IMG/VR virus record: IMGVR_UViG_3300000228_000006
Coordinates: 526-64,525 of that record
Length of the DNA: 64,000 nucleotides
Reading direction: 5' to 3' (one strand)
Origin: a virus
In this document: positions 25,051 through 58,641 of the stretch, in pieces
Layout of the letters: every line of letters begins with the position of its first letter
How positions within the stretch are numbered: position 1 is the first letter of the stretch
Translations under genes and position numbers: made by a program
The notes under the pieces: model-generated
Databases searched by the model: none
What the model saw: only the letters and a program-made list of their open reading frames with translations
Told to the model about the DNA's origin: nothing

Positions 25051-25093
25051 AAAAATGCCCAACTCACTTAATTGTGGGTTGGGCATTTTTTTT
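25051..25093. terminator. Bidirectional terminator at the strand-switch point
   Basis: AAAAATGCCCAACTCAC-ttaatt-GTGGGTTGGGCATTTTT between convergent genes. Confidence 0.88.
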
Positions 25094-28000
25094 ACTCTTC
25101 TTGTCAAAATTCAAAAGCTTTTATATCTCTAGATACCATTTGTTGTATCGTTTTATCTCCTGTAAGTACTCCTTGAATATCTGAAGCTACTTTTGTACCA
25201 TAGCTTCAAAAAACAGGTTCTGTTTTTATTGCTCCTAGTGTATTTCTCCACATATTTGTTTCAGATAACACTTTTTTATTTACGTTCTGTGCAAATAATG
25301 CAGCATTACCTGCAATACCTTCTCCTCCAGTTTCTTCTATTGTAGCATCTAAAATAGCTTTAAATATACCAAGAATTATCATCATAAATAATGTATCAGC
25401 TAATCCAAACATTACTCTTCTATTTCTTTGTTCATCTGCAAAAGCTCCCTTAAAATCTCCCTGTAATAAATCTTGTGTTGTATGTAACATAGCATAAATT
25501 AATCCTTCCTGTGGTTTTCCAGTCCATTCTAATACTGGATCTCCAGTATTATCAGTAGTTTCTTCAAAATCTGTAATTCTTTCAGGATCATATTTATCTT
25601 CATATAGGGCCTTTCTTCACCACTTAATAGGATTTTTCTGTTCATCAAAAGTGACTTTCTGTTGAAATTTACCTATAGGACTTGGGTTTATTTCATTACC
25701 TTCTTTATCATGCGTTGGTTTACCAAATCACATCTTCATCTTTCCTGGCCAGAATTGCATAAATTGCATAAAAATTACTCCATACCACATTTTTGAAGCT
25801 TGTGATGAAGCATCAGTATCATAATATCCATATGACATATCTGACATAGTTTTTATACTTGCTCTTTCATTTTCGCTATATGCTTTTGATACTAAAGCTG
25901 ATTCATCCATTTTTATATAAGAAGGATCTACTAAATTTTCTTTATTTAAATCATTTACTAAATTTAAATATAAGTTTCGTTGTGTATTATATTTTTCATC
26001 TCCTTGTTTAGGAATGTAACGTCCTTTAGAATCCTTGTTATTTTCTCTTTCTTTAAAGTAATATTCAAATCTTCTATCCTTAGATGGATTATAAATTAAT
26101 TCTCCTTCTGGCGTCATAGAATGAGCATCATAAGAACCATCATGTATAGAAACTGCTAAAAATATAGCCATACGATTATAATAATCTGGAATAGTGTTAA
26201 ATACATACATATATCTGCCCAATCCCTTCATAATACCCCGCCTATCTGTCTGCATTTTTTTAGCAATAGAATTAACGTCCATATTAGCAAACCTATATAA
26301 ATTATTCATACCTTCTATTAAATTCCATTCAATAGATGTTTTTTTATCTATAGTAACTAATTTTTTATAGGCACTTAACATATCTTCAGTAGTAAATAAG
26401 TCTTTACCAAATATCTGTGTAGCAGCTAATGATATTCCTTTGAGAGTTCCAATAGTTAACTCCTTAGCTAATAATGTAGGTCTAAAAGCAAGCATACCAG
26501 CTGTAGAAACTTGCTTAGCCGCAGAAGCTACTATCACTAAAGCCTCTGCTTCTGGGTCAATAATTGGGGCATCAAATACAGATAATTTTAATTGATTTTC
26601 GACATAAGATAATTCTTTAGATATATTAGTATTAGTCTTACCTGCATGTAATTTCATCCACCATATATATGATGTAATAGCTGGTAATCTAAAATCCATT
26701 TGAGTTTTTCTAATTTTATTAAAAGCTACTCTATGTGCAATTGTATCTAAATTAAATTCATAATAACTAACACCATTTTTTGAAATCATACTATGTTTAA
26801 ATGCATCTGTTTGTTTTCCATAAACATCATACATTTCAGTATATCCTAATTGTGATTCTGATGCAATAGTACGTTCTTCGTCTGATAATTCTCTTGGGTC
26901 AAGTATATCTTTAAGTTCATTTATCCTGCCCTTAATTCTGGTTCAAACTTGCCCTAAACCTCCCTCAATTAATCCTCCATGCCTAGTTAATTCTTCCCTC
27001 CTTACTAATGGAATTTTAAAGTACTCTCCTGATGTAATAGCTTTTGCAATTACTGGAATAGACATTAAATCTTCTAATTTATTAGTACTTAATTGTCCAC
27101 TCTCAAATTTACTTATAATTTCTGGATTTAAATGTAACATAAACTTTTGAATATGAAATAACATATTTTTTAAATAAATTCTTTCACTATCATTTAAATT
27201 ATTTTTTAAATCTACAATATATGGATTTTTAGTTTTAAATTCTATATTTACTTTACCATTATCTTGTAAAAACAAGTTAGAATGCTTACTTTGAGACTCC
27301 CCAACTCAATTTTGTGCCATATTTGAATAGCCAATTTTTTTATAGTAATCTCTAGTTAAAGATGAAATCTTAGCAGATTCCTTACACATTAACTCTGCAA
27401 TTTTTGAGTTGCCTAAAGACATTATTTTATTTATAGTTCTAAGGTCTTTAGATGGTACTCAGTCAGGAGTTACAAAACTTAATCCTTGAAACAACCCCAT
27501 TATTTTACGTTCTTCTTTATCAAAGTTAACTTCTCTTCCGCTATAAATAGCTCCCACTAAACTTTTAAAATCAGAGAAACCCAATCCCATTGTGGACATA
27601 TTATGAAAATCTCCAACTGGTAAATATCCTAATTTTATGTTAATAGCCATTTGAAGCATTGCAAATAAATATTCTTCTTTATTAGCAAAGTCTGTTGTTG
27701 GAGAAAAAGTTCTATCAGTTAATTCCGGATATCTAGCTATAAACGCTTTTTGTACTAAAACTAAATGTTTATAATCTGCACTAGCCCAATCAAAATCTCC
27801 TTGTTGTTTAAATAATGACTCTACTTCATTTTTATCAGTTCCAGAATAATTATTTAAAGTAGACCTTAATAAATCCATTACAACATTATCTACTGATTTA
27901 ATATCACTAATTTTACTTAATTTATTTTTATGATTCATACTAGCCTTAATCATTCGCTGTTCATATAAATCATATGCTTTAAAGTTTAACTCCTTATGAT

Positions 28001-29720
28001 ACTTTTTAGTTTCTAAATTAAATGTAATAATTTCCCCCAATTTAAATCCTCCAGAAAGTAATTCACTCTTAAATGTATTAAGAAATAGCATACTTTTAAT
28101 TGTATCTATATTTCCATAACTTAAACCATTTAGTCCAGAGTCTCCATTTAATCTATGGATGGTTATGCTTAATAAATTTATAGTGTGAGTTTTACGATTT
28201 CTCATAGGAATAATGCCCATTGCCCTAGCTTCTGGAATATCTATTAATTCCCATTCACTATTTAAATAATCTTTTAATAAATTATTTAAAAATATTTGCT
28301 TCTCTTTAATTGGGTATTTTAAAGCTGGATTTGAAGGATCACTAAGAACTGAACCAATAGCCTCACTTACAGTCATTACATTTCTATTAACTTGTTTTTT
28401 AACATGTTCAACATAAATTTCAACTTTTTTTCTAAATTCCTCCTCTGTATTAGCAGTAAAAGGGCCTTTAGGTAACCCATCTATATTATCATAATTATTA
28501 AATTTAGTCCATTGCCCATTTGTGTAGGCTTTTGCCATGATAGCCTCAACAGAAGAATCTTCATAATTAGTTTTTATTTTATATCCAGGAATTAATTCAT
28601 TTAAATCTAGTTCTAATTGTTTTTTCCTTTCTTCATTAACTTCAACTTTAATTCTAGTAGGTATTAATCATTCTGCAACCTGTGTTATAGCCCCATCTTC
28701 CCTTAACCCAGATTTAGTTTCCATTTTTCTATTGATTATATCTGTAAAAGTTAAAGAATTTGGGTCACCAAGTCTACTAAATTGAATTGGTATAATATTT
28801 AATTGCATATTTTTAATATTAATATGCTGTGCTAAAAGCTGCCTATATAAAGCTAACTGCCAATCAACCGTTAATAATTTAGCACTATCTCAATTATTAT
28901 AATTATGTTTAGAAACTTTAATTTCATATACATGTGCATCACCTTTTTCATCAATAGCTACCAAATCAAGTTTACCACTAACTTGAGCTATAGAATTTTC
29001 ATCACTAATAAGGAGTAATTCTGTAATTATTTCATTATTAGGACTTATTCTTCTGCCTATTGTTTCTACTAATTCAGTAATAGATTTTGTTCATTCTTTT
29101 TCGGTAGATTCTCCAAGTATATCTTTATTCTCAGGGTCAATAATAAATTTATCTAATTCTTTTTTAAACTTTGAACTAACTCCTTCTTTTAATGATATAG
29201 ACAATAATTTATGTAAGAATATACCAAATTTCTTAGTTTTTTCTTCTTCTTTTATAATTTCTTCAATTTCGGATAAATATAAATTAATTACATTATCATT
29301 TATATTAGGGTTACCTTCTTGCCTTAAAAACTCCCTAGTTATTTCTAAATCTTTAGATACGAGGACTTTACTAAAATCATAACTTGGGGATTGATTTTCA
29401 AGAACTCGTTTTTTTACGTAATGGTTTTTTCTATTAATCTCTATATATTGTGGAGTTAACCTATCCCTTTCTAATCCTAACTTTACTAAAAAGTCAGTGT
29501 TAAGTTTAGACATATATTCTGTTGTAGAAATGACATCATGGCTATTAAGGTATTCATTTGCCTTCTCAGCTTCTTTCAATAAAATTTGTTTTACACTTGT
29601 CTGAATTTCTTCTTTACTGTAAATAGCTGCATTTCTAAGAATTTTTGTTTCCTTATAAAATTTATCAGCTAAGCCAATTAAATCCAACGGTGCATTATCT
29701 AATTCATATGTACATCCCAT
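25092..29720 (-). CDS. Giant virion/cargo protein A (1542 aa, 10 TGA) with a PD-(D/E)XK-like nuclease domain
   Basis: Five track ORFs share one frame; the gaps I read contain only TGA stops. Starts MGCTY. Contains GKLDLVAID...YEIKVS...WQLALY. Confidence 0.85.
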
Positions 29721-29721
29721 T

Positions 29722-32700
29722 TTAATTACAATTTATTTCTAGTTTATTTTCTAATATTTTCTCTTCAATCCACTTTCTAAACTCGGCTTCAAACATAGTT
29801 ACACTGTTATTAAACAAGTTATTACTTTCTTTAAAATCAATTGGAAGTAATGATTCAATGGTAGTGTTTAATATATCTACAGGACTCAAGTCTTTAATAG
29901 TGTCTATATCAAATTTTAATCCCATATTTTCCATATGATTCATTAATAAATCAAGGAAGTTATTAATATCTCTTGGAAAATCTTCTACTGAAATCATTGC
30001 ATTTGCTATATTTGTTACAAATTTTTCTTCAATTTCATCTAATGTATTCACAGTTAAATTCATTTCTTGTTTATAAGATAATAAAATATCTTCATAAACT
30101 TCTCTAGATTCATTTGTTGCATACTTTAAATTAATTAAGAACACATGTAAAAACTCATGTAATACATCAACTTTATCAGTATTTTTATTATTTAAATTAA
30201 TATAGATTTTACCGCCCTCAATTTTAGCATATTCGTTTGGCTTAAAATTACTACCATTTTCATCTATAATAACTTCCATCTTGTATTTAGCAAAAATATT
30301 TTGTAAATGTTCTACAAATTCTTCCATTACTACTTTTCGTGAAGTTGGCTTTTCTTTAAAATTTTCTTTTTTATACTCTTTACTAAAAGTGTCAATTTTG
30401 CTATTCCCAACAATTCAATAATATTCAAATATTGAATTATCTCCATCATTACTTAATAGTACACTTAAAGGTATAGTTTTAAACTCTGTTAATAACTCAC
30501 CATTATAAGAATAAACATTATATTCTAATATAGCATTAGTATCTGATAGATTATTAATTCTATAAATTTTCTCATTAACATTTCCATTAAGCCTTAATTT
30601 AACATAAGCTCCTTTATTTAAATACTCTAGTTTCTTTTTATAGTCTAGTTTTTTAAATCCATTAACGGTAAATAATCCCTTAGTTTGTCTAGGTATAATA
30701 CCATTTTTATCCTTTGTTACTAATATCCTTTTAATGTCCTTTCCAGTTTTTTCTTTAATTTGTTTTAAAACTAAATCAGTTATATTAGTATAATTGCTAT
30801 ATTTTTCAGTAGTACTAAAAATCTTTTCTACTACAATCCCCATATTAGGGATATTGTAATTTAAGACTTGTAAGTTATTTAACATACCTAATTTCTCATT
30901 TGGCAATAAGTATGCAACTTCCACTTTATTACTTACAATTTCTCCTTCAACTGGTTCTGCAAAGAATGATTCTTCTAATGTCCAATTATTAGTAGTAACT
31001 GTATTTAATGCGTAAGGTGATGATATTTTTCTTGTAGTATAAAATTTTAAATCTTCATTATTAAAATCTAAAATACTTGTCAATCCTACAATACCTCCAG
31101 TAGCTTCTACAACTCTTCCAGAGACCTTATCTATAATTTTATAAACATTATATTTATTACCATTTTTGATAACCGCATAATCATTATTTTGTAATAAATT
31201 TAAATCATCAAAAGATGATAAGTTATTTTCTCTTATACTATTTCCCCCTAATAATTTATTATGTATATTAACGATTTCTTCTCCTTCTGTAATATTCATT
31301 GTATTTTTATCAATGAACACAGATAATATTCTAGACCTTTTAATGCTTTCAATTTTAAGACCATCTGAATAGTTAATTAAGATATAGACGTTATCAATAT
31401 CACTATCTATAACTTTATTATATACTTTTTTATTTTTATGAGATATTTGAATAATATCTCCTATATTAGCTAATTTGCCACTACCATTTGAAATATTTTG
31501 AAAGTTTTTAAGAGTTGCAACATCTAATGGTTGAAAATCTATATCGTTAATTTTAGAGCTTCTTACTGATGTAATAGTGTTAAAATCATAAATTTTATTA
31601 TGAGTACCATTAAATTTAGTATTTAATATAATAACTCCTGGATAAACTGCTAAGACATAACCATCATATTTTGTACCTCTTGATGTAGTGTATTTTATAA
31701 AACTACCTCTTTCTATATATCTTTGAACTACCTGTTTAGATAATCCAGCTTCATTACTTACAATATTACCATTAATTTTTTCTTCTGAAGTTAAATCTGT
31801 TAAATCTGCTTCTACTATATCTTTTGCTTCAAATTTTCTATATTCAACTGATAAATTATCATTTTTAACTTTAATTGTATCAAATGCTAATTCAATATTA
31901 GATTCTCCATCTAGAGTCCTACCTACTACTTTAATCCCTCCAGCATCAGCTTCTATACTTGTTGGTATAATTCATTTGCCTTCTTTATATTTACCTTTTT
32001 CTGGCAATTTAATAATATCAACCCCTAATCTAATATTAGAATTTAAAAAATTTAAAGTTTCTAAAATTAGATCTTGTTTACCAGAAACTTCAAATTTTTC
32101 TTTTGGGTTATAATAAAAATTTCTAACTAGTGTATCATTATATACAATATGTTCTTGTACATCTAATAATTGTTTGGCTTTAAGATTTACAATATTATTT
32201 CTATCATATTCGTTAGATAATAATGTTTGCTCTGTAAAAATAGGCACTCCATACTTTTTTGGATCTAATGCTGCAAATAATTGTTTTGAAATACTTCTAA
32301 ATTCACTCCCCTGCATTCTTCCAATTCCTTGTATATCTTCAGAACCTGTTCCTACTAAACTAACTAATGTATTTAATGTTTTCCTACCTTCTATAGTATT
32401 AAATAACTTATACATTTGACCATCTTCAAATGAATCTTTTGTCATTTTTCCTAAAAAGAAATCTTTAACATCCAATCCTTCTAAATTTATGGCATTTTTA
32501 CTTACTCCCTTTAATGTTGTATTATATGCAGTAAGTACAGTGGTTAAATCTTCTAAACGAATGTGCTTTGCAAATTTTGATTTAATTGCTACTAAAAATA
32601 AAGATAATGGATTATTATTTTGATAAAATCAAAATTCTGGTTTAGGAGTTTTACCTTCTACACCTCTGACAATAATAGTATTATTTTCTTTACTTAAATG

Positions 32701-33087
32701 ATTAATAGCAACTAATGTATTAGTTAATCTCTCTTGTTTTGTATGCATTATATCTAATGCTTTTAAAACATTCAAAGGAATTATACTATCTATAGCATTA
32801 TTTTCTAATTCAGCTATTTTAGTATATAATGATTGAATTTCATTTTTAATTGAAGTTTTATTCACTATACCTAATACTCCAATATTCTTAAAATAATCTG
32901 GAGTTATTTCTACATTAACTTTATTCAAAATATTGCTTATCTGTTCTGATTTTACAGTATAATCTCGTCCTCATGCTTTTAAGGCGGTTTCGATTGAAGA
33001 CATTGAGGCTTTAGATTCATCCTCAATATCGGTGGGGATTTTTAGTTCCCCACCATCTGGTAATTTAATAATATATGTACATCCCAT
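29722..33087 (-). CDS. Giant virion/cargo protein B (1121 aa, 4 TGA) with a C-terminal zincin-like HEFLH motif
   Basis: Four track ORFs in one frame joined via TGA; MGCTY...EINCN*. Confidence 0.85.
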
Positions 33088-33092
33088 TTGTT

Positions 33093-36000
33093 TTATTTAC
33101 ATTTTATTGTTATTATTAACGCATTTTCTTTAATATATTTAATAATATTTTGTATATTAAGGTATCGTTGTTTGTCTACTGATATTGGATCTAAAGTAGT
33201 ATTTACTACATAGTCTGTATTTATAATCCTTAAAAGCTTTTTAGCTCCTGTTAATGGATCTTTTACATATAATTGTCCACCTTTATGAAAAGTATAAAAT
33301 ACAATATCATTTTTCATAGCTTGCTCAGCTTGAGTTAGTGTTTTTATCTCTTCTTTTGTCTTAATTGGTTTATTTAATACTTCTTTATTATCATCTGTAT
33401 AATCGAATAAATCAATTTCACCAGAGTCTATTTTACTAGAAAAATGTAAATAATTATTACCTACAGTATTTGGCTCTTTAATATAATCTTCAAAAATTGG
33501 TGTCAGTCTTAAATCTCCATATGATTCATTATTTACAACTAAATTATAAACATAAAATAAATCTCGTCAACTCATATCTACTCCCTGAACATTTTGTAAT
33601 TTTTTCTTATTAAGGTCTAATTCATTAAATTCACTTAATAAATTTTGAAACTTATCTAAATTTACTGGATTATTTAATTGAGACATACTAAATGCAGAAA
33701 CAATAGCACTCATTCTTGAGCCATAAGCAGTTCTTAAACTACGAATAGTTAATGATTCCATAAATTTAGGATTATAGTCAGCTTTCTTTAAGATTGGAAC
33801 AATTAACTCTTCCATTATTTTTTTAAAGTTTGCTATTCCGTGATCTGTATCTAAAGTTACTAATAAATTATTATCTCCTTTTACAGTAATAATCTCAACA
33901 CTATCCTTACTAATTTTAGAATTAGCATTATATAATACGATTTCTTCTTCTCCTGCTAATTTTAATAATTCTTTCACGTCAAAACTAATATTTGAAGGGG
34001 ATGTTTTATCATTTGAGTCTTTGGATTGTGCTCATTTACCAACTAAAAACTTATCAAAAGCTAGTAAAGCCTTTGATAAAGCTATATCATTAATTTTAAG
34101 AGGTAATGCCCTATTTCCCATTTGATGTTTTAAATTTTCATTTAAAGTTTGTAACTCATCCGTTTTTTCTCTAGCTATACTTCTAAGATAATCAAATGCA
34201 AAGTTATACTTTTTTGATAACTTATTTAGTATATTATGAGATATTTTTACTCCATCAATCATAGCTTTAAAATGTGGCACTGATTCAATTACATCAAATA
34301 CATTAACTGTATCTTTTAACAGGTTATAATAATCTGCAGTAACTTTTCTGTAAGTGTCATTCTCATCCTTAATATATTCCCTAAAATCAAATTGACCTCC
34401 TAAAATTTTATATTTTACAGCATTATTTAATACTTCAATAATCTTAGATTCACTAACAGTTTTATTATTTTTTTTAATCAGTTTTATAAACTTTTTATCT
34501 GCTTCAGAGTTATTTCCAAAATCTCTTAAATAGATTAAATCATTTCCAAAAATTGCATGTTCTCTGGCAAACATAGTTGTTTCTAAATTGGTTAAAAACT
34601 TATTTAACTCTTTAATATTTGCAGATGTTTTTTGATTTACTTTTAAAAATCCAGATAACATTCTAAATTCTTGAGCTCCACTATACATAGATTTAAATGT
34701 AGCTAAGTCTGGACTAATACCATTAGCTTTTTCATAAGTTTGTAAAATCGTCGCTACAAACACACTATCATTTCCGTCAGACTCTAAAAATAAATTAGTT
34801 TCTAAACTTTTAGCTATATCTATCGCAACTTTGGAGTTCATAAATTTAGCAATGGTATTTTTATCAATACCAAGAGATAACATATATAAATGCATTGATG
34901 CTAATTCAACAGAGGCATTCAATTTAGCCATAGCTAATTCTTTTGCATTATCAGTTGCAAGTGATGTAAATCCGGACATTGCAATAGCAGCTTGACTTTT
35001 AAATACATCTAACTTTTGCTCGCCTTTAGATATAAACTGTTCTAATTGAGTTATTTGATGTTTTCTAATTCTTACATCAGATAAAGTTGAAATATTATAA
35101 CTCGTTTCTTCCATCACAAATTGCTTATTAAACAACTTATAATCATTGTCTACCACAGTATAATCTGGATCACTATAATGGTTATTATAATATGAAGTTA
35201 ATGCAAAATAAACTTTTAGGCCATTAGCTGCAATACCTACATCATCTTTACCAACAGAGGCATCTTTTTGTTGTTGCATTATGCTTATGTGGTCTAAACT
35301 TGATAATAAAAATTGAACTCCACCCTTTGCTTTTAATCCTTCACTTGCTGCATTTTGCCAATCTTCTACCTCTACAGGTTCATTTGCAATTAAATAATTA
35401 CTTGGAGCTGATATAATATTTTTAATTCTACTAATTACTGAATTATTTATTGCACTTTTCTTGTATAAATAATCTGTTGATAAATTATAATCATTAATTA
35501 ATTTTATAAAATCTTTTGTAAATTTCGAATATAATGGATTATTTCCTAAATTTATATGTAATGATTGGGATTTATTAATTTTTAATAGTATATCTCTTAA
35601 TTTATTAATAGAATCTACTGAAAAATTTGAGTTAATTGTAAAATAAGGCACTTTTTCTCCTTTCAAATCTTGAACTATACTACCTCAAACTTCTTCCATA
35701 GAATCTATAGTGTCATTATCTACACTATCAATAAATGCTTCAAATTCATCAGATAAATCTATACTATCAGCTATACCAGCTGGAGTATATAAAGCTTTAG
35801 GAGTAATAATTTTCTGTCCTCTCGTCTTTCCTTTTGTAATTCTATTATTTGGAAATGGCAATGTTTCTATAGCATTAAGTACTTCTTTTGAATTATAATT
35901 TAAAGGTGCTCACGAATCATATTGTCCATTTTTATCAAAGCCATATCCCATTATATATGCTTTATCAATATCAAAGTCAGAACCTTGCAACCAAAGTTGT

Positions 36001-39000
36001 CATGTTGATACATAAGCATCATTACCAGAAGCACTATTGTTATTATAGCCAACATTTCTCATTTCCATAAAAGATTGCATAGATTGAGCTGGAATACGGG
36101 CAGCTACAAATTCATGTGATTTTTCCCAAGAAATTCTTTTATTTAATGCCATTTTATTAATTATATCATCCTTGATTTTATTAAAGTCATCATGCAAAGT
36201 ATCTTGTCTAAAATTAGATAAATCAATAGTAATACCACTAAATTTGGAAAATTCTTTTAATGTTATTTTATGAATACTAGAATCAATTAATCCCCTACCC
36301 AATAAATTACCTTCTTTATCAAATCTCTCAACATACTCTTTAAAAACACTATTCATTGTTGGAATAATAGCATCTATTTTTCCATTAAATGATTTAATTA
36401 GTTGTTTAATCGTATCATTTAATCCTTCTTCTATTATATGATATTCTGTAACTACTTTACTTAAATGTTTAGATGCAGCTTTTATATATAAGGTTTCTTT
36501 CCCACTATCATCAACAATGACTTTAGAATTTTCTGGCAAAATATACATTTTATTACCTAATTCATCTAATCTAATCTTTACAGTTTTTAATTCACCATCA
36601 ATCTCTTCTCTGTCAGTTATAATAGAAACTTTACTATTAGATGAAGGTAAATCCACAACATATTTTACATATATTTTCGGGTTGTTATCTCCTAATGAAA
36701 TGATGAAATCAGAATTATCATCAGTTAACTCAAATTGTTTTTGTAATTTATCTACAAAATAATTTGGGTTATTTCTAATAGTTGTAATTGAATCCATATT
36801 GGTTTCAAAATCACTTTTATAAATATTTGGCAGAATTAGTTCTGCTGGTTTAAATTTATAATTAGTTACATTAATAGTTCTGCCATTGTATAAATGTTTT
36901 GCGTCTTCAAAAATATTCTTTATTAAGGCATCCCCATTAAAATAAGTTTTAAAATCTGTATTTATATCAACAGGTATCATTATTAAATGATTATCTAATA
37001 GTTGAAGATTTCGTTGAGTTCATGCATTTAATAAATTATCTGCCTTTTTAAAAGCTTTTTGTGCTTCTTCATTTTTCTTATCTCGTACCTCTTCTATTAA
37101 TTTCAAAGGAATCTTGTTTGCCTTCATAAAGTTACGTAGTATCAGATAATCACTATCAGTTTTATCGATAGATCCCTCTTTGAATTTATTTAAAATATAT
37201 CTCAATCGAATAGAGTCAGTATCAAATATATTTTTAGCTTCATAGATTGATAAATTTGTTTCTTCATCTAATCCTGTTGTAATTTCAAAAGTAATTTCAG
37301 AAGGCTTTAAATCTCTTGGAACAGAGAATGATTTCATAACAGTTTGACCTGCAAACTCTTTTTTAAACTTATAATATTTTTCAATAGTATCAAGAGTATG
37401 TGTAGTTTTTAAATCTAATCCATCTACATTTAATACTATATCATAGCTATCACCAGGCTGTATTTCACTGGCATCTACAGGTTTAGATTGGTAAGTTTTT
37501 TCTAAATATTGTTTAATTATCTCTTCATTACTACTATTAGGGTTATACATAATAGTATTTAATTGATAATCTGCAAAAGCAGCTTTAGCTAAATCTTCTT
37601 GTTTAATAATATTTCCATTTGAATCTTCAAACAGTTTTATAATCCCATGAGAGGGGTTTAAGACTGCCCCAATTCCTCTGTAGTATCTTGTAATAAACTC
37701 ATCATTCATTCTTGATATTACATCTTTAACAAATGCCTGAAAGAAATTTTGATTACTAAATGGCACTTGTAGATCTTTTGGCAATGATTCTAATATATTC
37801 TTAGCTAAACTAACATTATCTGATTTACTCATTTTATCAATGAATTTTCTAGCCATATAGTTATATAAATCATCAGTTTTATTCCCTAAATATTTTTTAT
37901 AAGGAGCAGCAGCTTTTTTAATAGTACTAGCTAAATTTTCATAGACTTCTTGAGCTAAATGAGCAGTATTTCCATTTTGAGCTAAAGCTGAGACTACCTG
38001 AGTTACTTCTTTAATCTCAGATGCATCTGCTTCATGTCCAGCATCTAGCTGTGGCCCCATATGTCTATTTTCATAAGTAGTAAACATTAATTTATCTTTA
38101 GATTTTCACAAATCATTAGAATTTATATTTGTACCACCTGCTTTAATGGATGACTTATTAGATATGATATGAATCATTTGTTCTTTTAAATCATTATTAA
38201 CAACTATATTAAATAATTCTTCATTAGAACCTTCATTGAATTCCCCATTAACACCCATTGAATATTCTCCACCTAATGCTTCCCATACTTCATATAGAGT
38301 ATTAGCTGGTTTAACAACTTTATTTAATAAGTCATTATTATAAATTATATAAATTTTATTGTCCTTAATAAGATAAGAAGTAATTTGTTTATTAATACCA
38401 CTATCCATCACAAATAAATTGTCTGGAGTTAGTGGGGTAGTTTTAAGTCCATCTAAATTAAATGCACTAAACATTTGGTATTGTTTATTTTTATAGCTAA
38501 TTTCTGAATGATTAGAGTTTCTAATAATATCATTAGTAACTACAGTTTCTGCATCTTTTTTAACAACACAAGAGTAATCTGTAATAAAAGTACCAAATTG
38601 TTTTTTAGTTCCTTTATAGCTTTTTCCTGGATATGAATTTTCAACTAACTTACTATATACATAATTGATAGTCGAACTGCCATCATGTACTTCTTGATTG
38701 TTTTTAGTTTGTCCTGCAATATTATACATCTGAGCAGTTAAATCCTCAATTACTGCCAAATTAACATTATTCGGAGTACCATTTTTTTGATTTCTAGAAG
38801 GCAATTCAATTGTTGCAGTAAATATTACATTACGTTTAGCCATACTAGCTAATCTGCCACTCATTTCAATAGCTAAATCATCAAAATTTATAGAGGGCTT
38901 ATCTCCTCTATAGTTTAATTTAGCTTTATGTGGATGCATATATTCTCCTTTTGCAGAAATATATAAGTATTCATTTTTAAATAAATTGCTCATCCACATC

Positions 39001-41867
39001 CATTTCTTTACTAATGGATTTAAATTTCCAAATTTATCCTGTATTTCTTGTTTTTCTCCTTGTGTATTAGTTAAATTAAGGGTAGAATAGTATTCGTCAA
39101 GTTCCTTTGAGTTTAAATTTAATGAAGTTAAATTATTATTAGCATATAAATATTTAGCAATCATACTATCTTCTTGTAGTTTAATAAAAGTATTAAACTC
39201 TTTAGAAGGTTTTGAGCCTTTATATAAATTATAATTATCAACTATTAATTGATTTAATGCCAATCTTTTGTTACCATTATCTAAATAAAAACTATAATGT
39301 AATTCTTCTGTAAAATTAGCTCCAGCAAAAACAGCCTGTGCTTTTTCTTGTTGAAATAAATTTTTACCATTAACACCTACTTCATTTAAATAATTATTTA
39401 TGAATAATATTTTTTTATTATTATCTTTTAATAAATTAAAGGCTTCTCCTCTTCCATTAGTATTGAATAAGATTTTATATTGTTTAAATATGTCCTCTAA
39501 TGTATCTTCATAATAATTACGAGATTGCTCTCTAAATAATTCTATTAAATCTTCATTTGATAAATCTTTTATAATCTTACCTTTCCATTCTGTAGAAGTG
39601 TTGATAAACTTAGTTAATATTGTAGACTTATCAGAATAATTGCCAATAGTTATAGCAAATGATTTATTTTCATTTCTTTTATCTTTAGAAAATGATTTAA
39701 GAAAATCAAATATAAATGTAGTATTAAAATTTTCAATTACATTAAATTTAGAAGCAGGCTTACTCTCAGTTATTCCATCACGTACTTCAAGTTTAGTTCC
39801 TGTACCTAATATAACAGATTCAGTAGGCAATTTGTCTATATCACTTCCAAAGAAAATTGATCTATGTAATTTATCTTTGTTCTTATTATAGTTTATATAA
39901 TGGCTTTGTAATAATGAAGTGTCATTATACATTAAAGTAGCTGTTTTAAAAGTAGGAATTTTATCCCCTTTTAATGTATCTACAGTCATAATAGTTTTAG
40001 TAATATAATTATCTACAAACTGTTTGATAGCCTCTATTAATAATGGATTACTTAATATTTCCCCTAATGCCTCACTTGGTTCTACTGCCGCATCTGGTGT
40101 ATCTCCACTTAAAATTTCTTCATTTTTTACAATTGCAGGTACAACATCAGTTTTTAATAAGTCAAATAATTTCTCTAAATCATTTTTTAAACTCTTAAGA
40201 TTATATTTACCTTTATTTACTCCGCCTGACATATCCATGTTTAGAATAATATCATTAAAAGTTTGAGTATTAATATTAAATCTAAATCTTTTATACATAA
40301 ACTGTTTAAAGTTGTACTTAAATTCTCTTAATTCTCTACTATCTGCTACACTATATGTTCCATCAGGATTTTTTTCAAGTAACTTAGTATCTAAGTTAAT
40401 ATCTTTAAATAAAGTAGTTAATCCCTTTGATTTATCAAATCAACTATCAGCTTTATTTAAATTATTAGATAGGTTAGCATATATTCCATTTTGAGTTGCA
40501 ATAGTACTAGCATTATGCTTATGCATTTCTTGTATTTCGTACTTCCCATTTGTATTATAAATTTGATAACTTGCCCCAAAAGTATTATTAACAATTTGCC
40601 CTAATATAGCTAATACTGAAAAATTTTCACTATTTTTTTCTTTTTCTATTATATTATTATTTTCTATAAAAGATTGTAAAGAATAAATTAATTCCATTTT
40701 AGAAGAAAATATACTATATGGCTTATGGGCTTCTTCTGTAAAATTACTAGCTTTTGCTTCAATAATTTTTGTAAGATAATACAATAACATTCTTTTAGGA
40801 TATTCTTCAAATCTAGTCCATTCACTATCTTGCAGATATGTATTTATATTCTTAGTCTCTAATTCTTTTATTAATCCTCCTAAACTATACAAATCCTTCA
40901 TTTCTAAAAATCCACCTGTAGCTACATTCTTTTTGTTAATTTGAGGAATTGTAGCAACAATAGCCTTTGTTAGTGAGTCTTCTAGTTTTTCAATTCCTTC
41001 AGATTCGTGATCTTCTTTAGATCAGTAAACTTCTTGATTTCCTTTAATATTTAAAGAATATTTAAAACTGTTTGTAGGAGAGTCATTAAATTTATTAAAT
41101 ACTGAATAGTCAATGTTAAGCACCTTTTTAAAGTACTTATTAATGATATTATCAAAATTTATTAACATAACTGCTGCATTATAAGCATCAAATTTATTTC
41201 TATCATCTACATTTAGAATACTTCCTCTCAAGTTTGGAATTGGCCTTCCATTATAAGATTCTCTTTTTTCATCTGCTGTAAATAATTGTGATTCTAAAGT
41301 ACTAATAGCCACTTTAAATGTAGCATATGCATCACTATTAAAAGAGCCGTCACTATTATAAAGTTTTAATTTGTTGTTGGGCTGATTAACATAATTTAAT
41401 AATGTTTGAAACAACTCTTCCTTTAAATTCTTTATATTATTATTTAAATCTTCTTTGTTATTAACATAGACTCCTGTTTTACTGTTACCTATAGCTACAG
41501 CTGTCATAACTAACCCTGTTACTTTGGATTTAAAATAGTTTTCTGCTACATTCATAGTGTGAAATAAATCAGTAACCTCCGATGAAAGGAAGTTACTGTT
41601 TATTGCACTTTTAAAACCAGCAGTTGTTGTGCCTAAATTAGTTAGAAACTTACTAATATTTATTTTATAATAATCAAAAACATCTATTAAATCTTCTAAG
41701 TGGGCTTGATTATTTGTATTTTGAAGATAAGAAAAATAATCTTCTAAAGTAATTTCCATCTTTTCTTCAATAAATCTAGATAATTTATCAATATCTTTAA
41801 TTTGTTGAGCTTTACTATCTATTAAAGATATTACTTTTCTTACATTTATTAATTCACAATTTGCCAT
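33093..41867 (-). CDS. Virion-packaged two-barrel RNA polymerase (2924 aa, 9 TGA)
   Basis: Eight track ORFs in one frame. RIPAQSMQS and catalytic GSDFDIDK (35961-35984). MANC...IKCK*. Confidence 0.9.
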
Positions 41868-41891
41868 TTTATTTTCATTATTTATTTATTT

Positions 41892-44800
41892 TTAACATGG
41901 GAAAATAGTCTCTAAATCATCATCATATATTGATTTATTCTCATCTCCTGTTAATGTTTGTATTAATACATTCAATTTTGCATTTACTGTATCTATTGGT
42001 TTTTTAGCTTCTCTAACACTAGATAAATTTAAAGATGTATTAGCTAATGCTTGTACTATCCTGATTTTTATGCCATCAACGCTATTTAAATCTATCTCAA
42101 TATCTTCCTTAGATAAATTTAAAAAGTCTAATGCTATAAGTAATTCATTATATAATTTCTTATTAGTTGTTGAGTCTTTTAAATTTTCAAAGTAATTTAA
42201 AATATTAATTAATTCTTGGTAATCATTTTTATCTAGTCCTTCAAGTCATTTAGTTTGTAGTAGATTAAATGATAAATTTGTTGGCTCTTCTGAAGTTATT
42301 GCCGTATTCTGTATTTCTTCTTCTACTTGTTCAATATTTGGAACTATTGTTTCTTTCTTAGTTTTTGAATTTACAGGGGGCTTTTCAGGATTAATTAACT
42401 CTTCTTTAAATTTGTTTTCTAAATTAATTATAATTCTTGGTGGTTCTGGAACTGCGTTAATAAAGGTTTTTTTACTAATATTTATTCCATCACTGGTTTT
42501 TCTTACAGTATTATTATTATCAGTGTAAGATAAAATATTATAATATATTGGCCCTTGATTACCAATAAAAGCCATAAGTTTATCTACTGTTTCTTGCATT
42601 TCTGCAATAATTGGTTTATATTCCTCCGATGGATTTTTATAGAATCTTAGGTTAAATAAATTTATAAAAGGCATTGCCCAAGTTCCATTAGTTTTAATTA
42701 ATGGTAGAACTTTCTTTTTTAATTCTTTTGCATTTAATGTACTATTATCACTATAAGTTTTAGCTATAGTTTCTAATGTAGTTTTAAAATTAATAAAAGA
42801 ACTTCCTACTTTTTTAGTATCTCTACTTGTAAAAATATCTTCAATTAGACCTAAAATAGATGTTGGCAGTTTAAAGTTTACACTTGATTTATTAAATTCT
42901 CCTTTTTCAATATCAAATAATTTATCAAATAGACCTTTATCTTCAATAATTAATTTAGTAAGCCAATCTAATATCTGAGTTGGACTAGCTAATGCATTAA
43001 AGGCTTTTTTATCAAAGGACTTATTACCATCTGCATATATTTCTTTAGCCTCTTGTTTAACCTGTTCAATAGTCCTACTTTCTACAAACACTGGGATTAA
43101 TTTAGTTTGTATATCTTTACCAACTCCTCCCTCAAAATCATTTTTATATGACAATTTTATATAGGGTTTTCCTGCATATTTTTCATATAACTTCTTAATT
43201 TGTTCATCAGTTCTTGGTGTTCCATAATTAAATGAATTTATTAAAGATTTAAATGCCGCATAATTAGGTTCAGATGGATAAAAGAATATAGTTGGTGTAC
43301 CGCCCTCTGATTTAACTAACGTTCCTGGGAATGTATTAGTTATTTCAGTTAAGTATGTTTTACTATTAATATTTTTACCATTACTATCTTTGAATTTAAC
43401 AAGTCTAGTATTAGTAATAAGTTTAACATCAGTAAAAGTCAGTGGTTTACCTATTTCTACTATATGTACATCAGCATTTGTTTTAAAATATTTAGTTAGC
43501 TCTTTAATTTTGTCTGTATATGCTTCTCCTGTTTTTTCACCAAATTCAAAATTATCATTGCCGTTTTTAGAAATATTAGCTAAAGTTAAGTAATGACTCT
43601 TACCATCATAGGTTATTTTTAATGATAGATTGATAAAAGGATCTGCATTTGTTAAAGTTTGCCCTATATTAAATCCAAATTTATCTCCTGGCTTATTAAA
43701 TTCTTTATCATACATTGAAGCTGTTAATACATAGTCAACTTCTACTTCTCTAGACTTAATATTATCAATCCCTAAAGCTCGTTTAATAAATTCTTTATTA
43801 TTTGCATCATTAAAAAGTGCTGTTTTATGGCTTTTTATGTTATTAAAAATTGCTAATGTTTTTAAATCACTTCAAGTTTTAAATAACTCTTCTGCATCTT
43901 CGCCCTTAATTCTAGTGTCTACACCATTTAATACTTTAAAATTTAAGTCAGTATTTGTTTTTGATCCTCCAAACTCAATAAAATCTACTTTATTTGTATC
44001 CACATTTCTTCTTACAACAGCATTTCAATTATTATAAAAGCTATGAAACATTATATCAAAATTATCTTCTATAATAGTTTGCTTAGAGCCATCTGCATTT
44101 GTTTTTGTTGATGTAGGTTGTTTAAATTCATCCCCATTAATATCATCATTTCCATTTAATTCATTATTAGTTATGATGAAATCTGTGTTATAATCTACCT
44201 TCTCACTTGTTATCGAGCCTTCTGTTGTATTTTCTTCATCAAGGTTAGTAATTGTATTAGAAAAAGTAAACCCCTTTGACATAGCCTTAAAATCATTATC
44301 AAGGAGTTCTTTAATAGTTTTAATTCTAGTATCTTTATTCTTGTTAATAACCTCTTCTGTTAATGGTTCACGTATTTCAGTAAAATTATCTGATACATTT
44401 TCAATTTTTAATGACTTAGTAAAATTTAAACCAGAATCTACAATAATAGTACCATTTTTTGCTCTAGATATATAAGTATAAAATTCTTTTAATTTATGAT
44501 TTGTTTTTTCAGATTTAATTAATGATGTATCAAATATAAAGTAGTCTGATTCATTACCTTGAATATTATTTAAATTAAATATTTTCAGATTTGGATTTTC
44601 TAGGTTAATTCCAGCAGCTATTAAAGATTGTTTATAATCCTCAGATAAACCATTGTAGTCATCACTAGACTCTGTTAATATACCTACTTTTAAACCATTA
44701 TCTAAATTTATTTTCATTACTTTTAATAAGTCTTGATTTAAATCAGGTACAATTATATCTCCATTTAAAACCCCATTTTTAGTGTCTAAAAAGGAATGTA

Positions 44801-47800
44801 AAGTTGGTTTAATATTATCTAAAGTTAATAGTACATTCGATTCAGTATTATCAAAGTCTTCTGTATAAAATTTAGAAATAGTACTAATTAATCCAATCAT
44901 GGAATCATTGTTATCTCTTTTTTGATTATTAGCAGAACGAACTGTAATATTTAGAGTTGGAGTAAATATTCCATTTGCTCTATTTGCATTATATTCTATA
45001 AAGCCATTAACATCAACTTTTTTACCAATTTGATTAGTATCTCCTGCTGTATGAATTTTCATAAAGCTACCCTTTTCTTTAGTAAGTCGTGATATTTCAT
45101 TTAAGATAACTAACTCAACTGCAGAAAAGTGTGTTGTTTCATCTATTAATAGTAAATTAGGTAAATTTTCTAAAGAAACTTTATTTAATTCCTCAAAAAT
45201 AAATGGCATACCATTATCAGATTCTTTTAATTTAACTGCTGGTAAGTTTTCATAATCAGTTCCTTGTTCTATATACTTATTATTAGTATTAGTTAAAGAT
45301 GCTTCTTCTTCTTTAATAGTTTCCATTAAAGCCCCTATACCTAATTTTTCATATAAAAGTTTTTTACTAAAGTTTTCAGTATTTAGTGTGGAAGTGTTAA
45401 TTCCTTCTAAAACATCTGTCATTAATTTAGAACCCTGATCTTTATGAGGGCCAGCAAATCAAATGCTTAAATTTGGATTATCTGGCAATAATGCTTTTAC
45501 AAGCATTTTAAATACAACAGTTGTTTTACCTGTACCACCACCTCCTAAAATAAATGTTATTAAATCTGTTTTTAATAATTCCGTTTTAGTATTTTCATCC
45601 ATATTCTCAGTTATCATCTGAAATAATTCTGGACTTACTGTAGAAGCCATCATTACTTTAGCTGCTAACTCTTGAGTATAAAATGGTGCTTTATTAAAGG
45701 CTATATCTTCTAATATATTTAAATCTTTAATAAAATGATCTCTAGAATTTATAGAAAAAATAGTTGCTAAATAAATAGCTCTTTCATAATCAGTAATATC
45801 CTCAGATTTAAAATCTTTATTTATCACAGATTTATTATCAGTTATATTTAAAAATTCAAGTATTACCTTAAAAGCCTCTGCTTTATTGTCTTTATTTGCT
45901 TCATAAATTAATGTTTCAATTTTCATTAATTTTTTCTCATTAGAATCTTTTGAATTTAAAATTTCAGTTAAATCCGGTATAACAGGGTTACCTTTATACA
46001 TAGGATTTTGCTTTATTAAACTCTTAATAGTCTCTAAATTGGTTTTAGTCATAATTTCTCTTACTGCTTCTTGTTCATTGAACATTTTAGAAGAATTACT
46101 TTTAGATATATTTAAAATAAATTCTAATTTATTAATGTATCTATCTAAGTCTTTATTCATTAAAGTGGCAGTATCTGAACTAATAGTTTTTAAACTTATA
46201 GTATCAGAGGTAATCTTATTTCTTTTAACAAAATTTTGTCTTGAAGCAATGAATCCAATAGGGTCTCCATAACTTAATTCAGTCGTACTCATAGAATTAA
46301 CTACTGATTTTAACAATTTTAAAGTATTAATAGCTTGTTGTAAATCTCTATTTTTAATTCCTTCTGCTAAATAATTTGATATAGACGAAGATGAAATTAA
46401 AGACTGTTCTTCTTGTTTTAATAATTGTAAAATAGTTGATGTTCTACTTTTTGAATTATCCTCTAAAGATAATTGAAATTCTTCTAAAAAATTGTATAAT
46501 TCATTTTCAACTAAATCTAGCCCTTTAGCTTGTAATTCATATAATTTATTTAATTGTTTTAAATCACGTATAGAATTTTTGTTATCTACTAAGTTTTTTA
46601 TGGCTTTTTCTAATTGTTTATTAGTATCTTCATCTCCTAATAACTTGGTAAATTCTATAGGTAAGTTTAATTTTTCAATTGTTTCTTTTCTATAGTCTGT
46701 TCCAATAACATAAGTAATTTCATCCTCATTTTCTTCAGAAATTGCTGCTTGTTCTTTAAGAATTTGTTCAAATAAATCTTTATCATCTTCTTCATAGTAA
46801 ACATCTCCATTTTTTAAAGTTATTTTATTTATTTTATTTGTGTACTGATTTAATTGATTAGCTATTTTATCTGCATTATTTAAAATAGATAACATATCTA
46901 ATGGATTTGTAATGGTGAAATTTTTCAAATAAACATTATTTAATTCTAATAATCTATTATCCACCATTTTTTTAGCTTCCTTAAACATTTCCATGTCTGC
47001 TTTTCCAGGTTTACTTAAAGTATCTAAAAGTAATTCTAAAGCTATATTATTTATTTTTAAGAAATCTGGCTTATTTTTTGCAATAGCTGCATTTTTTTCT
47101 ACTATTCAAACTTTATTTTTATAATCTAAGTATTCTCTATATTGAGAATAAATTGAATTTTCTGAATTGTAATTTTTATAAGTATTTAATTTAGATTGTA
47201 TATCTTCTAAAAATACATCAAGGTTAGGAGTATCAGAATTTAAAATATCATTTCATTCATTACTTATTAAACTATTTATTTCTTCTGTATTTCTTATACT
47301 TTCTAATTTAAATTCATCTGTTTTAGCCCTTGAATTCAAATCAGTTAATTCTTGTATTAAGGGTTTTAATAATTCTTGAATTTGAGCTGAAAGGCCTATT
47401 CCTGACTTATCTAAAAGTTTAGTAACATCAGTTTCTCCATTAATTATTTGGTCTAATAAATCATTGCTTAAGGTTGGGTTAGCTTTTTTAAAATTATCTA
47501 ATAATCTATTACGTTTTTCAATTAAATAATTTTCAGCTATTTCATTTAAATCATAAAATTCTCCTGTAAACGGATTATCAAAATAATTATTTAACTCATC
47601 TTGTTCAGAATTTAATTCCTTTGGAAGTTTACTTTCTAATAGTTGTTCAAACTTAAAGTTAATAGCTTTAATGTTACTTAAATTAGATATATCACCTAAT
47701 CCAAAAGTAATTTTAGATTTTTCTAAATTATCAATCTCTTCTTGTATTTCTGGAGTTATTTCTTCAGATTGAAGTAATTGAGTTATTTTTAAATTTACAT

Positions 47801-50800
47801 TATTATTAAAAGCATTTACGCTATCATTAAAATGTTCTGCAAATTTTTCACCAGAAAAACTAGTTGGAGGTAATCCTTTACTTAAACTATCAATAATATA
47901 AGCAACTTTGCTTATCTTTTTTACTTCTCCTTCATCCTCAATTTCAATTTCTTCTTCTAATTGACTTTTACTCAATGGCTTAAATTCTCCATCAATATAA
48001 TTGCCAACTAAACCATTATTTATGAAATTAGAAGCTACGTCAGTTCTATATACATCTCAAGGTGCAAATTGTTTTTTAGTATACCCTTTTAGTTCATTAC
48101 TAATTTGAATGTAACTTTCTATAGCTCTTGCTTTTTCCTCTTCTGTTCCTGCAGTATTAAAGATTTCTATTGTTCTTTTTAAATCTAAAGTTTTTTTATG
48201 AATCTCTTTTCTAACTGCATCATATCCAGTTTCCACTCATTTTGCAATTGCTGGATTAGTATTTTTCTCTAACTCTAAATAAGCCTTATATTTAGTTTCT
48301 AAATCAAATTTTATATCAGCATTATCTAAGTAACCTTGAAATTCTTTATTTATTCGCTCTTTACTTAATCCTAGCCCAGTTTCTGGCAGTTTATAATAAT
48401 CAATATTGTATTTTGTTTTAGTGTATGTATTTTTATCGAGTGTTAATCAATCTTGGCTTAGTTGTTTTGATAAGTAAAAGGTAGCTTGTCCAAAATAATG
48501 TTCGGCATTTTTACCTTCTAATATATCATTTTTCTTTTGAATATATATTTTACGTTCATCCTCTAATAAAGTAATAGTAGCTTTATTATTAACTTTAGCT
48601 TCTTCTGTTGTAGTTAAACTTTGTATTTTAGTAGTTAAATCTACTATCCTATCCAAACTTCTTGTATAATCTTCTAATATTAAACCTTCAATACCAACTG
48701 CATTATCTCCTTTCGCTTTTTCTAGTTCATTAATAACAATATGATCTAATAAAGCCTTTTTAACAATTTCTTCATTAGTATGAGCTAACCCTTGAGAATT
48801 CATAATACCATCTATGGAATTAATCATCCCAATAGCTGTATCAGCAATAACATCTGCTTGAGATTTACCTTGCTCTGCTGCTACTGGATTTCCATCAACA
48901 TCTACTGGAGATATATAAGAATTACCCAAACGTTTTCTTTGTCTATTAATTTCATTAATTGCTAAGTCTTTTTGACCATTCCCAATTAATTGATATATTG
49001 ATTGTTTTACTTCCTGAGGTATTTTTCCAGTTAATCTTGGCTCAATAACTGTTGAGTTAAATTCAAACATTGGACCGCCAATCATACCGCCAACTAAATT
49101 AGCTACATAATTTTCTAGCCCAGATTTTGAGAATATAACATCTGTACCTCCAAAACTTCCCTGCTTTTCAGTAAATCCTAAATAAGACATTGTATCTATT
49201 ACGCCTTTAGTAGCATCCTGTACTAATTGCTCACTTACTTCTTCTACTCCTTCCACAACTGAATGTTTCCAAAGATTTTCCCCCAAAACAGAAGGAGACA
49301 TAAATGTATCCTCAATTGTATTTTTAAAATTTTTAAATATTCCTGCTAATTTAACCTTACCTTCAACCTTATTTGATTCTGCAAATGCACTTTTAATAGG
49401 TTCAAAGTACCCTGAAATACTTTTTTTCATTAGGGCTTTATTAGTCTCAATAGAATATCCAGTTGATTTATCTAAAAATCAATCTCCCATCCTATTATTC
49501 ATCATAACCCCATATTGACCAGCAGCTACTGCTAATGTAGCAAATCCAGCTGTACGTTTATCATAGCCTCCTTCAATAGCTGCTCCATAGGTATCAGCAG
49601 ATGTAGTTAATGCCATATACCCTAAATTTAAAGCTTTTGACATAGCAGACTGTTTTTTAAGAAATTCAGCCATTTCTGGTATTTTAGACATAGCTGATTG
49701 TTTTAACATCCCTATATCTTTCATATCTATCTTTCCACTAATAACTCCTTGTAATAATTCATTATCAATTCCTTTAGCAATCTTCTCTCCTTCGTCAGAT
49801 AATTTTAAAGCTGAATTATTAGTAAATACTTTAGCTAAACTAGCTGCAGCTCTTTGTTCGTATATTTGAGAGAATACACTTGTAACCATTTGGCCCATTT
49901 GTTCATAATTAAACATTGAGCCCTGAGCCTCATCTGAAAAAGACTGTGCTTTAAATTTAGTCATGTAACCCTCTGCTGCAGTTGCAGCGTCAGTTAATCC
50001 GCTTTTATTTTCTCCTAGTAATAACCCTTCAAATGATTTATAAAATGTTGGTAAAACTGATGATAATCCAATAGCAGCACTTACTCTCCCATAATGAATA
50101 TTAAATCCTGGTATTAAATATGGAGCTATTTGTGCAGCTAATTTAAATGTTGTTCCACTTATAGATTTCTCTCTACTATCAGAATCCATAAAATCAAGCT
50201 TATTAAATATACTGCCATCAGTAGTTAATACATCTGTTGGGTTTAATACTTGTTTTCCATAAACTTCTCTATCTCCAAGTGTTTCCATAAAGAGATTACC
50301 ACTTGCATCAGCTTTTCAATCCCCCTTTTTATGTTTAACTTGTACTCCATATTCTGGATCTAGATGTACTCCTTCTTCATCCCATTGTGCATAAACTAAA
50401 GTTTCCCCAAAAAAATTATTTAATAATCCCCTATCATTAGCAGAGTCTTTACTCCATTCTCCTGTTTTAGTATCAAATATTTTTCCAGATTGTGCTATTT
50501 CTCTTAAAGATAGTGGATTTGCATCAATACTTCCTACTCCTGTCCAACCTTTTAATGATTTAAATGGATCTATATCTTGACTATATTCTACATCTACTTT
50601 ATAAGTTTTTGCAAATTTTGGACGTGTAATATCAAAAGGACTATACTCAATAGTATCTAACCCTTTTAAATATTCTTCATTAGTGATTTCTGCATATTTA
50701 GTTGAGGCTACTGCATAAGCATCGTTAAATGCTAAATCATCAAACTTGCCATTTTCATCTTTAAACTTTTCTTGTATAAAAGTAGATTGTTTATATTTAT

Positions 50801-50918
50801 CTTTACTAAATAATGAAGTATTATTTCCATTTATATTTGAGCTAAGTAGGTCATATGAACTTGCAGTAGGGTTATCCAATACTGCCACCATCATATCATT
50901 TGCTTTAGTTATTTCCAT
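41892..50918 (-). CDS. Giant virion/cargo protein D (3008 aa, 11 TGA) with N-terminal hydrophobic segments and an internal SF1 helicase-like domain
   Basis: Seven track ORFs in one frame. GGGGTGKTT, LLIDETTH, AGDTNQ, IQGNESDY and YTYISRA. Ends IFPC*. Confidence 0.85.
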
Positions 50919-52797: not shown

Positions 52798-52800
52798 ATT

Positions 52801-57498: not shown

Positions 57499-57529
57499 GT
57501 TATTATATTATATATTATAATGTAAACTC

Positions 57530-57661: not shown

Positions 57662-57675
57662 ACTATAAATACAAT

Positions 57676-57709
57676 TAAAGGAGGATTAAGTTTACCTATC
57701 CTCCTTTAA
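57676..57709 (-). terminator. Terminator-like hairpin
   Basis: TTAAAGGAGGAT...ATCCTCCTTTAA just downstream of the 57718-57993 gene. Confidence 0.6.
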
Positions 57710-57717
57710 TAATTTAG

Positions 57718-58626: not shown

Positions 58627-58641
58627 TCTTATTATTTTATA

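Follow-up and report, generated by a model that had tools for sequence, protein, structure and literature searches.

Facing terminal cysteines in the giant cargo proteins of crAss-like phages point to a tail-to-head chain, probably linked by disulfides

Four giant proteins encoded one after another in a stretch of viral DNA carry a cysteine at each of the termini that face one another in gene order. The stretch, hereafter the window, comprises 64,000 nucleotides (positions 526 to 64,525 of IMG/VR virus record IMGVR_UViG_3300000228_000006, a 75.9-kb fragment with a completeness estimate of 43%). The four proteins, called D, C, B, and A, are the predicted RNA-polymerase-associated cargo of a divergent crAss-like phage in which TGA has been recoded as a sense codon. 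Comparison with relatives strongly supports a pairing of neighboring proteins tail to head in gene order. The explanation that we prefer, and regard as moderately probable from these comparisons, is that the facing cysteines would form disulfides and join the proteins into a chain, D-C-B-A.

Under the bacterial code, the region from 25092 to 50918 breaks up into about 20 minus-strand open reading frames (ORFs). With TGA read as tryptophan (translation table 4), the same region resolves into four consecutive minus-strand ORFs in the order D, C, B, A, exactly as an earlier note on this DNA, made from the sequence alone, had given their order and sizes after TGA read-through:

41892..50918, minus strand: gene D, 3008 amino acids, MEITK...IFPC; first chain member
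33093..41867, minus strand: gene C, 2924 amino acids, MANC...IKCK; virion RNA polymerase catalytic subunit
29722..33087, minus strand: gene B, 1121 amino acids, MGCTY...INCN
25092..29720, minus strand: gene A, 1542 amino acids, MGCTY...FWQEE; last chain member

All four genes end in TAA and are separated by 24 (D-C), 5 (C-B), and 1 (B-A) nucleotides. Together they contain TGA in frame 34 times. Where homologs come from phages that terminate at TGA, these positions are matched mainly by tryptophan, followed by tyrosine and phenylalanine, which justifies reading TGA as a sense codon; the TGA-encoded residue 1986 of C is tryptophan in 30 of 30 aligned homologs.

The four proteins contain 8 cysteines in 8595 residues, all encoded by TGT, and six of the eight lie at the three facing junctions:

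41895..41897, minus strand: codon of D Cys3008 (...IFPC, then stop), upstream half of junction D-C
41856..41858, minus strand: codon of C Cys4 (MANC...), downstream half of junction D-C
33099..33101, minus strand: codon of C Cys2923 (...IKCK, then stop), upstream half of junction C-B
33079..33081, minus strand: codon of B Cys3 (MGC...), downstream half of junction C-B
29728..29730, minus strand: codon of B Cys1120 (...INCN, then stop), upstream half of junction B-A
29712..29714, minus strand: codon of A Cys3 (MGC...), downstream half of junction B-A

The only cysteine of D is its final residue, C has a third cysteine at position 1100, and A has a second one at position 779; Cys2923 of C and Cys1120 of B are each the second-to-last residue. 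The outer ends, that is, the N terminus of D and the C terminus of A, are free of cysteine. A recount under table 4 agrees with the earlier note on all of these figures, which had been read manually. If the eight cysteines were placed at random, the probability of finding at least six in the 18 terminal positions actually used would be about 2e-15, and about 3e-12 for a generous terminal window of 60 positions. The extreme scarcity of internal cysteines, to which the earlier note had drawn attention, stands on a proper count but not as a trait of the cargo. Five late proteins encoded between the muzzle gene and D (50920-60523, minus strand; 625, 1565, 191, 185, and 412 amino acids) have no cysteine at all, indicating that the internal lack is common to all virion proteins of this phage; the early plus-strand genes of the window have about 1.3% cysteine. 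The cargo-specific feature is the terminal cysteine and not the internal scarcity. Some relatives hold to the terminal rule with up to 0.6% internal cysteine.

The same arrangement is found in distant relatives. It is present at every junction in the two nearest GenBank relatives, which share about 25 to 27% identity with the window and use the standard code in one case and TAG as glutamine in the other. In Cellulophaga phage phi14:2, the single cysteine of gp67 is its last residue, those of the polymerase gp66 are Cys 3 and Cys 2179, and that of gp65 is Cys 3, making 4 cysteines in 5398 residues, every one of them terminal. In Bacteroides phage crAss001, the sole cysteine of gp47 is Cys 2339 (of 2341 residues), gp50 has Cys 5, Cys 1334, and Cys 2404 (of 2412 residues), and gp49 has only Cys 5. 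The gp47 gene lies on the strand opposite to those of gp50 and gp49, and the terminal pair is kept nonetheless, which rules out translational coupling, and local nucleotide signals of other kinds, as its cause. Both terminal cysteines are kept in 120 of 120 close gp50 homologs, in which the residues preceding the N-terminal cysteine vary.

A search of IMG/VR with the catalytic region of C yielded 80 loci in 38 non-redundant clusters using genetic codes 11, 4, and 15, and tight junctions between ORFs of at least 250 amino acids were counted in these clusters (n = 110). Cysteine was present on both sides of 100 junctions, on one side of 8, and on neither side of 2; several of the one-sided junctions reflect mis-set start codons or a cysteine 15 to 18 residues from the end. 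The earlier note had asked whether terminal cysteines are conserved across crAss-like virion RNA polymerase loci, and these counts answer that they are. The N-terminal junction cysteine occupies position 3 (48 cases), 4 (41), 5 (9), or 6 (7), while that of the upstream protein lies 0 to 10 residues from the C terminus, as the last residue in 25 cases, the second last in 52, and the third last in 13. At the outer ends, none of 25 complete A-like proteins has a cysteine in its last 20 residues, and none of five D-like N termini has one. Among 94 other ORFs taken as controls from the window, crAss001, and phi14:2, an N-terminal cysteine was seen in 2, a C-terminal cysteine in 7, and cysteines at both ends in none.

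Alignments of the individual termini show the same degree of constraint. Across 33 A-like N termini with a mean column identity of 19%, the cysteine is the sole invariant column; the surrounding MxCxY is conserved there, as is LxExC followed by an acidic residue at B-like C termini. In zincin-like domains, such as the one that ends B, the C-terminal cysteine is as invariant as the HExxH residues (15-sequence alignment). A profile of this domain retrieved 2113 family members from 1.84 billion representatives, and among the best 150 representatives at no more than 50% identity, 143 have a cysteine within the last 12 residues; of the seven that lack one, four are truncated fragments, two are fusions, and one is an odd case. 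In the sequences compared, the terminal cysteine rule holds across Crassvirales, whichever of three genetic codes is used and even where protein identity is below 30%.

Evidence that the two cysteines of a junction belong together comes from lineages in which chain members have been split, added, or fused. Chains have three to five members, every internal member has both cysteines, and the number of N-terminal cysteines equals the number of C-terminal ones in every chain, whether of 3, 4, or 5 members. In the L002/L057 lineage of relatives, D is split, and the new ends (...ACKVIA, then stop, and MQSNC...) each carry a cysteine. The second half starts at the homolog of window D residue ~1650, where unsplit D proteins have no cysteine, and the first half has only a C-terminal one. 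An additional 333-amino-acid member in the L008/L015 lineage has cysteines at both ends. Chains of three members carry the zincin domain fused onto the polymerase C terminus, and a C-B fusion in L046 (3111 amino acids) has only Cys 5 and Cys 3110, with none at the fused joint. Two natural B-A fusions, P0217 (2006 amino acids, with a PD-(D/E)XK domain after the zincin domain) and P0268 (1931 amino acids), align across the joint with unfused B and A pairs and retain the flanking motifs. At this joint, both cysteine columns are replaced and the stop codon and methionine are gone, while the polymerase-facing Cys4 is retained; the polymerase upstream of P0217 ends in ...IICSA. The loss of both cysteines on fusion and the gain of both on fission argue for pairing between neighbors. 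Judged from these lineages, the two cysteines of one junction depend on each other.

Structure predictions were obtained for the B-A junction. In an AlphaFold monomer model of the A N terminus (209 amino acids, 33-sequence alignment), residues 1 to 14, including the cysteine, have a predicted local distance difference test score (pLDDT) below 50, and the same is true, in a model of the B C terminus (230 amino acids, 15 sequences), of the last four residues of B, including its cysteine, which follow a long terminal helix. These models fit a location of the B-A junction cysteines in exposed flexible tails, neither buried nor catalytic. The terminal alignments of A-like N termini and B-like C termini show a single cysteine per terminus and no conserved histidine or second cysteine. 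Shared metal sites therefore look unlikely, and of the linkage proposed in the earlier note, by disulfides or shared metal sites, it is the tail-to-head topology in gene order that is strongly supported. A split intein with trans-splicing was considered and rejected, because a Pfam scan of A, B, C, and D gave no intein or Hint match and the cysteines, only 0 to 5 residues from the chain ends, leave no room for intein halves. An Asn-Cys motif, as in intein-like or asparaginyl-ligase chemistry, was likewise rejected, being far from universal and unaccompanied by a Hint domain.

According to the preferred explanation, each junction pair would form an inter-protein disulfide in the virion, where thiols are not kept reduced. 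The separately translated proteins would thereby be joined covalently, end to end, into a nearly linear D-C-B-A chain, equivalent in function to the one-piece polyprotein encoded by some relatives. Since the cysteines are at the extreme flexible ends, the joints would leave stubs of only a few residues, so that the chain could be packaged with its members at 1:1 stoichiometry and could pass as a thread through portal and tail channel. The reducing host cytoplasm would then cleave the joints and free the polymerase and its partners. The fuller proposal is put forward more tentatively, as a plausible possibility. In it, Crassvirales would link their separately encoded ejected proteins, of megadalton scale, post-translationally into a redox-cleavable pseudo-polyprotein that travels as one packaged unit and goes through the tail in a set order, to be cleaved into active enzymes by the host cytoplasm; this cut could be the activation step of the auto-inhibited polymerase.

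Several points weigh against a disulfide-linked chain. The case for it is one of sequence comparison throughout. Since thiols stay reduced in the host cytoplasm, disulfide formation would have to wait until after assembly or lysis; the gut, moreover, lacks oxygen. Searches for an Erv1/ALR sulfhydryl oxidase or a thioredoxin gave no match in the phage record, which is about 43% complete, and the Erv1 control also matched nowhere, so that this negative carries no weight. The phi14:2 polymerase gp66, purified alone under reducing conditions, is active (10.1101/2020.03.07.982082), which means that a link is not needed for catalysis. There are also exceptions to the terminal position. In a B-like protein of L048 (15939-17876), the conserved Cys 545 ends the zincin domain and is followed by 100 more residues; an 884-amino-acid chain member of L020 has no C-terminal cysteine; and in L078 and L048 an upstream cysteine lies 15 to 18 residues from the end. 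The 884-amino-acid member is followed, inside the TGA-recoded cargo operon, by a 631-amino-acid ORF without TGA and with a CxxC pair (L020:16208-18103), which possibly arrived as a mobile insertion and thereby disturbed the chain.

Other explanations of the facing cysteines were weighed against the same evidence. Disulfides could staple a folded multi-subunit RNA polymerase complex, without any linear thread for ordered ejection. In favor of this, crAss001 virion assemblies are stabilized by inter-subunit disulfides (PMC10172136), and the three cargo proteins are called RNA-polymerase-associated and may work together (PMC10172136; 10.1101/2020.03.07.982082). However, a structural bond could sit anywhere on an interface, whereas the cysteines are always just a few residues from an end of the chain, where the predictions show flexible tails. 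They also follow a strict head-to-tail order with the outer ends free, and a plain peptide linker substitutes for the pair in natural fusions. We therefore consider a staple unlikely. It is also conceivable that the terminal cysteines are independent end features, such as modification, packaging, or processing signals, with no bond between neighbors, as the short motifs MxCxY and LxExC plus an acidic residue are conserved per family and could be recognition sites. Independent signals are contradicted by the joint loss and gain of junction cysteines on fusion and fission, by the equality of N- and C-terminal counts in chains of all sizes, and by the first N terminus and last C terminus never carrying a cysteine, and this reading appears quite improbable.

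The remaining alternatives fare no better. Facing cysteines might bridge a metal ion (Zn, Fe, or Cu) with no disulfide, and the acidic residues that often flank the C-terminal cysteine of B-like proteins (ExC, then D/E) are possible ligands; with one cysteine per side, no conserved histidine or second cysteine near any terminus, and cysteine offsets from the ends that vary, the resulting two-thiolate site would be unusual and labile, and we give such a bridge little credence. Counts alone would permit the middle proteins to close on themselves, as B and C each have one cysteine per end, leaving D to pair with A. Self-closure is contradicted by the B-A fusions, in which Cys4 would be left unpaired by the loss of the C-terminal cysteine of B, and by the first half of the split D, whose cysteine is C-terminal only; it is very improbable. 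Finally, the pattern could be due to chance or be a by-product of translational-coupling signals at tight gene boundaries, given how closely the genes of the window are packed. The pair kept by gp47 and gp50 on opposite strands, along with the controls, effectively refutes this reading. Chance is opposed by a probability of about 1e-12 or lower, by the control junctions, which lack the pattern, and by its presence across three genetic codes and at identities below 30%, so that the likelihood of this last explanation is close to nil.

In several relatives, the polymerase ORF is interrupted at breaks of a different kind. A structured insert of 359 nucleotides in the polymerase of L069 (10816-11174; RNA fold z = -3.3) replaces 22 nucleotides of L073, the two being otherwise 96 to 98% identical. 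In L087 (5104-6276), the interruption is an endonuclease-like ORF (LAGLIDADG), and the polymerase is also interrupted in L064, L065, L068, L008, L082, and L001 (gap, 15942-17003); some of the inserts bear endonuclease-like ORFs. The ORF ends at these breaks have no cysteine, which fits introns that restore one continuous polymerase and lends some indirect support to the reading of terminal cysteines as marks of true boundaries; the interruptions are probably self-splicing introns. Rfam searches of these broken polymerase genes, and of the window itself, gave no intron family. The 4513-amino-acid ORF of L084 (2-13543) was considered as a D-C fusion and rejected: it encodes a polymerase into which about 1700 residues have been inserted, and the ORF is open at the locus end. 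The insertion lies between regions matching residues ~1660 and ~1700 of the L070 polymerase, and the full ORF is longer than 4513 amino acids.

The domains recognized in the four proteins, and the gene that places the window, are as follows:

35964..35978, minus strand: DFDID catalytic motif of two-barrel RNA polymerase, C residues 1964-1968
29725..30381, minus strand: zincin-like C-terminal domain of B, residues ~903-1121, with HExxH at 977-981, ending in the family-invariant cysteine
28815..29276, minus strand: PD-(D/E)XK nuclease-superfamily domain of A, residues 149-302 (PF12705, E 1.9e-8, above the curated cut-off)
60562..63855, minus strand: crassvirus muzzle protein gene (PF25731 crAss_MUZ, E 1.9e-23), in the same late operon, upstream of D

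The loop around DFDID in C aligns locally with crAss001 gp50-type proteins (BLASTP E 5e-5), while C had no match in a PDB sequence search, and PHROGs gave none for A, B, or C. The zincin-like domain of B matched no Pfam model; HExxH plus EE is invariant in its 15-sequence alignment, and the module sits in every case at the end of the protein preceding the A-like protein. The N-terminal ~60 and C-terminal ~220 amino acids of B match zincin-like proteins of 280 to 360 amino acids in relatives (e.g., L016, 282 amino acids), and about 850 amino acids are inserted between these two ends. Direct searches with B in the phage collection and IMG/VR found no relatives, and homology of its zincin-like domain to phi14:2 gp65 was not detected directly. 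D has a weak P-loop/AAA_19 match at residues 1787-1964, and its homologs in relatives are L1_2967 and L2_1540 plus L2_1555. Local jackhmmer searches started with the proteins of the window failed to arrive at those of crAss001 or phi14:2, so that the orthology of D with gp47 and gp67, and of A with gp49 and gp65, rests on position and topology, not on sequence. A profile built from the N-terminal region of A with its PD-(D/E)XK domain matches an interior stretch (residues ~1730-1892) of gp47, the first member of the crAss001 chain, which suggests that domains moved between chain members across lineages.

The muzzle protein match places the window in Crassvirales. Sense TGA codons are nearly confined to the late virion genes (24187-63855), with more of them in 52801-63855 besides those of A to D, and the early plus-strand genes (160-24066) are almost without them; this early/late split agrees with that of stop-codon-recoded crAss-like phages. 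An ORF of 286 amino acids, convergent with A (24187-25047, plus strand), matches glycoside hydrolase family 19, of the endolysin type, and contains TGA in frame three times.

No phages are more abundant in the human gut than Crassvirales, and the protein cargo that they store and deliver, the infection-starting polymerase among it, amounts to about 700 to 950 kDa. This cargo is invisible in the cryo-electron microscopy maps of crAss001. The rule of one cysteine per facing terminus offers a concrete hypothesis for its stoichiometric packaging, ejection order, and release. It is also an aid to annotation, since it marks true protein boundaries in giant recoded genes as opposed to cysteine-free breaks, which are possible introns, and it predicts the chain order even for genes that are not collinear, as in crAss001.

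The cargo proteins are of a known kind; their concatenation through terminal cysteines is undescribed in the literature that we found. Neither full-text searches nor the two key papers (PMC10172136 and 10.1101/2020.03.07.982082) yielded any reference to cysteines in the cargo or to a chain of joined proteins, and the earlier note had likewise known of no description. Virion packaging of the cargo is known by proteomics only for phi14:2 and crAss001 (PMC10172136; sequence-record notes). Like the window, these phages encode their giant virion proteins (gp67-gp66-gp65 and gp47-gp50-gp49, respectively) after the tail and muzzle genes. All of them have one protein with a DFDxD loop, one with a zincin-like HExxH module, and the terminal-cysteine topology. 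The window differs in having four chain members and not three, a separate zincin module with its ~850-amino-acid insert, and TGA as tryptophan, and its detectable sequence similarity to the reference phages is confined to the catalytic loop.

A disulfide-coupled cargo chain with reductive release has a counterpart in principle in AB-type toxins. In diphtheria toxin (A-B) and the clostridial neurotoxins (light and heavy chains), an interchain disulfide persists through membrane translocation and is reduced in the target cytosol, releasing the enzyme. The analogy is one of mechanism, with no homology, and the toxins differ in that their chains come from one nicked precursor and are held by one bond, with no head-to-tail series.

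Closer to the window, inter-protein disulfides have been seen experimentally in crAss001 virions, in the gp57 dimer and in the tail hub and ring proteins (PMC10172136). As in our proposal, these bonds connect separately encoded particle proteins; unlike it, they staple folded symmetric assemblies, are not at chain termini, and do not involve cargo. The crAss001 cargo proteins (gp45, gp46, gp47, gp49, and gp50) must partly unfold to pass tail constrictions of less than 50 Å (PMC10172136), and the phi14:2 polymerase is auto-inhibited, with its activation unexplained (10.1101/2020.03.07.982082). In some crAss-like phages, the three cargo proteins are fused into one polyprotein, which in the published view is probably cleaved into its parts (10.1101/2020.03.07.982082); the joining proposed here would run in the opposite direction of processing. 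The modules of the window are separate translation products, unlike those of the polyproteins. Both nevertheless have the same modules in the same order, and the polyprotein backbone gives the continuity that the cysteine pairs would imitate.

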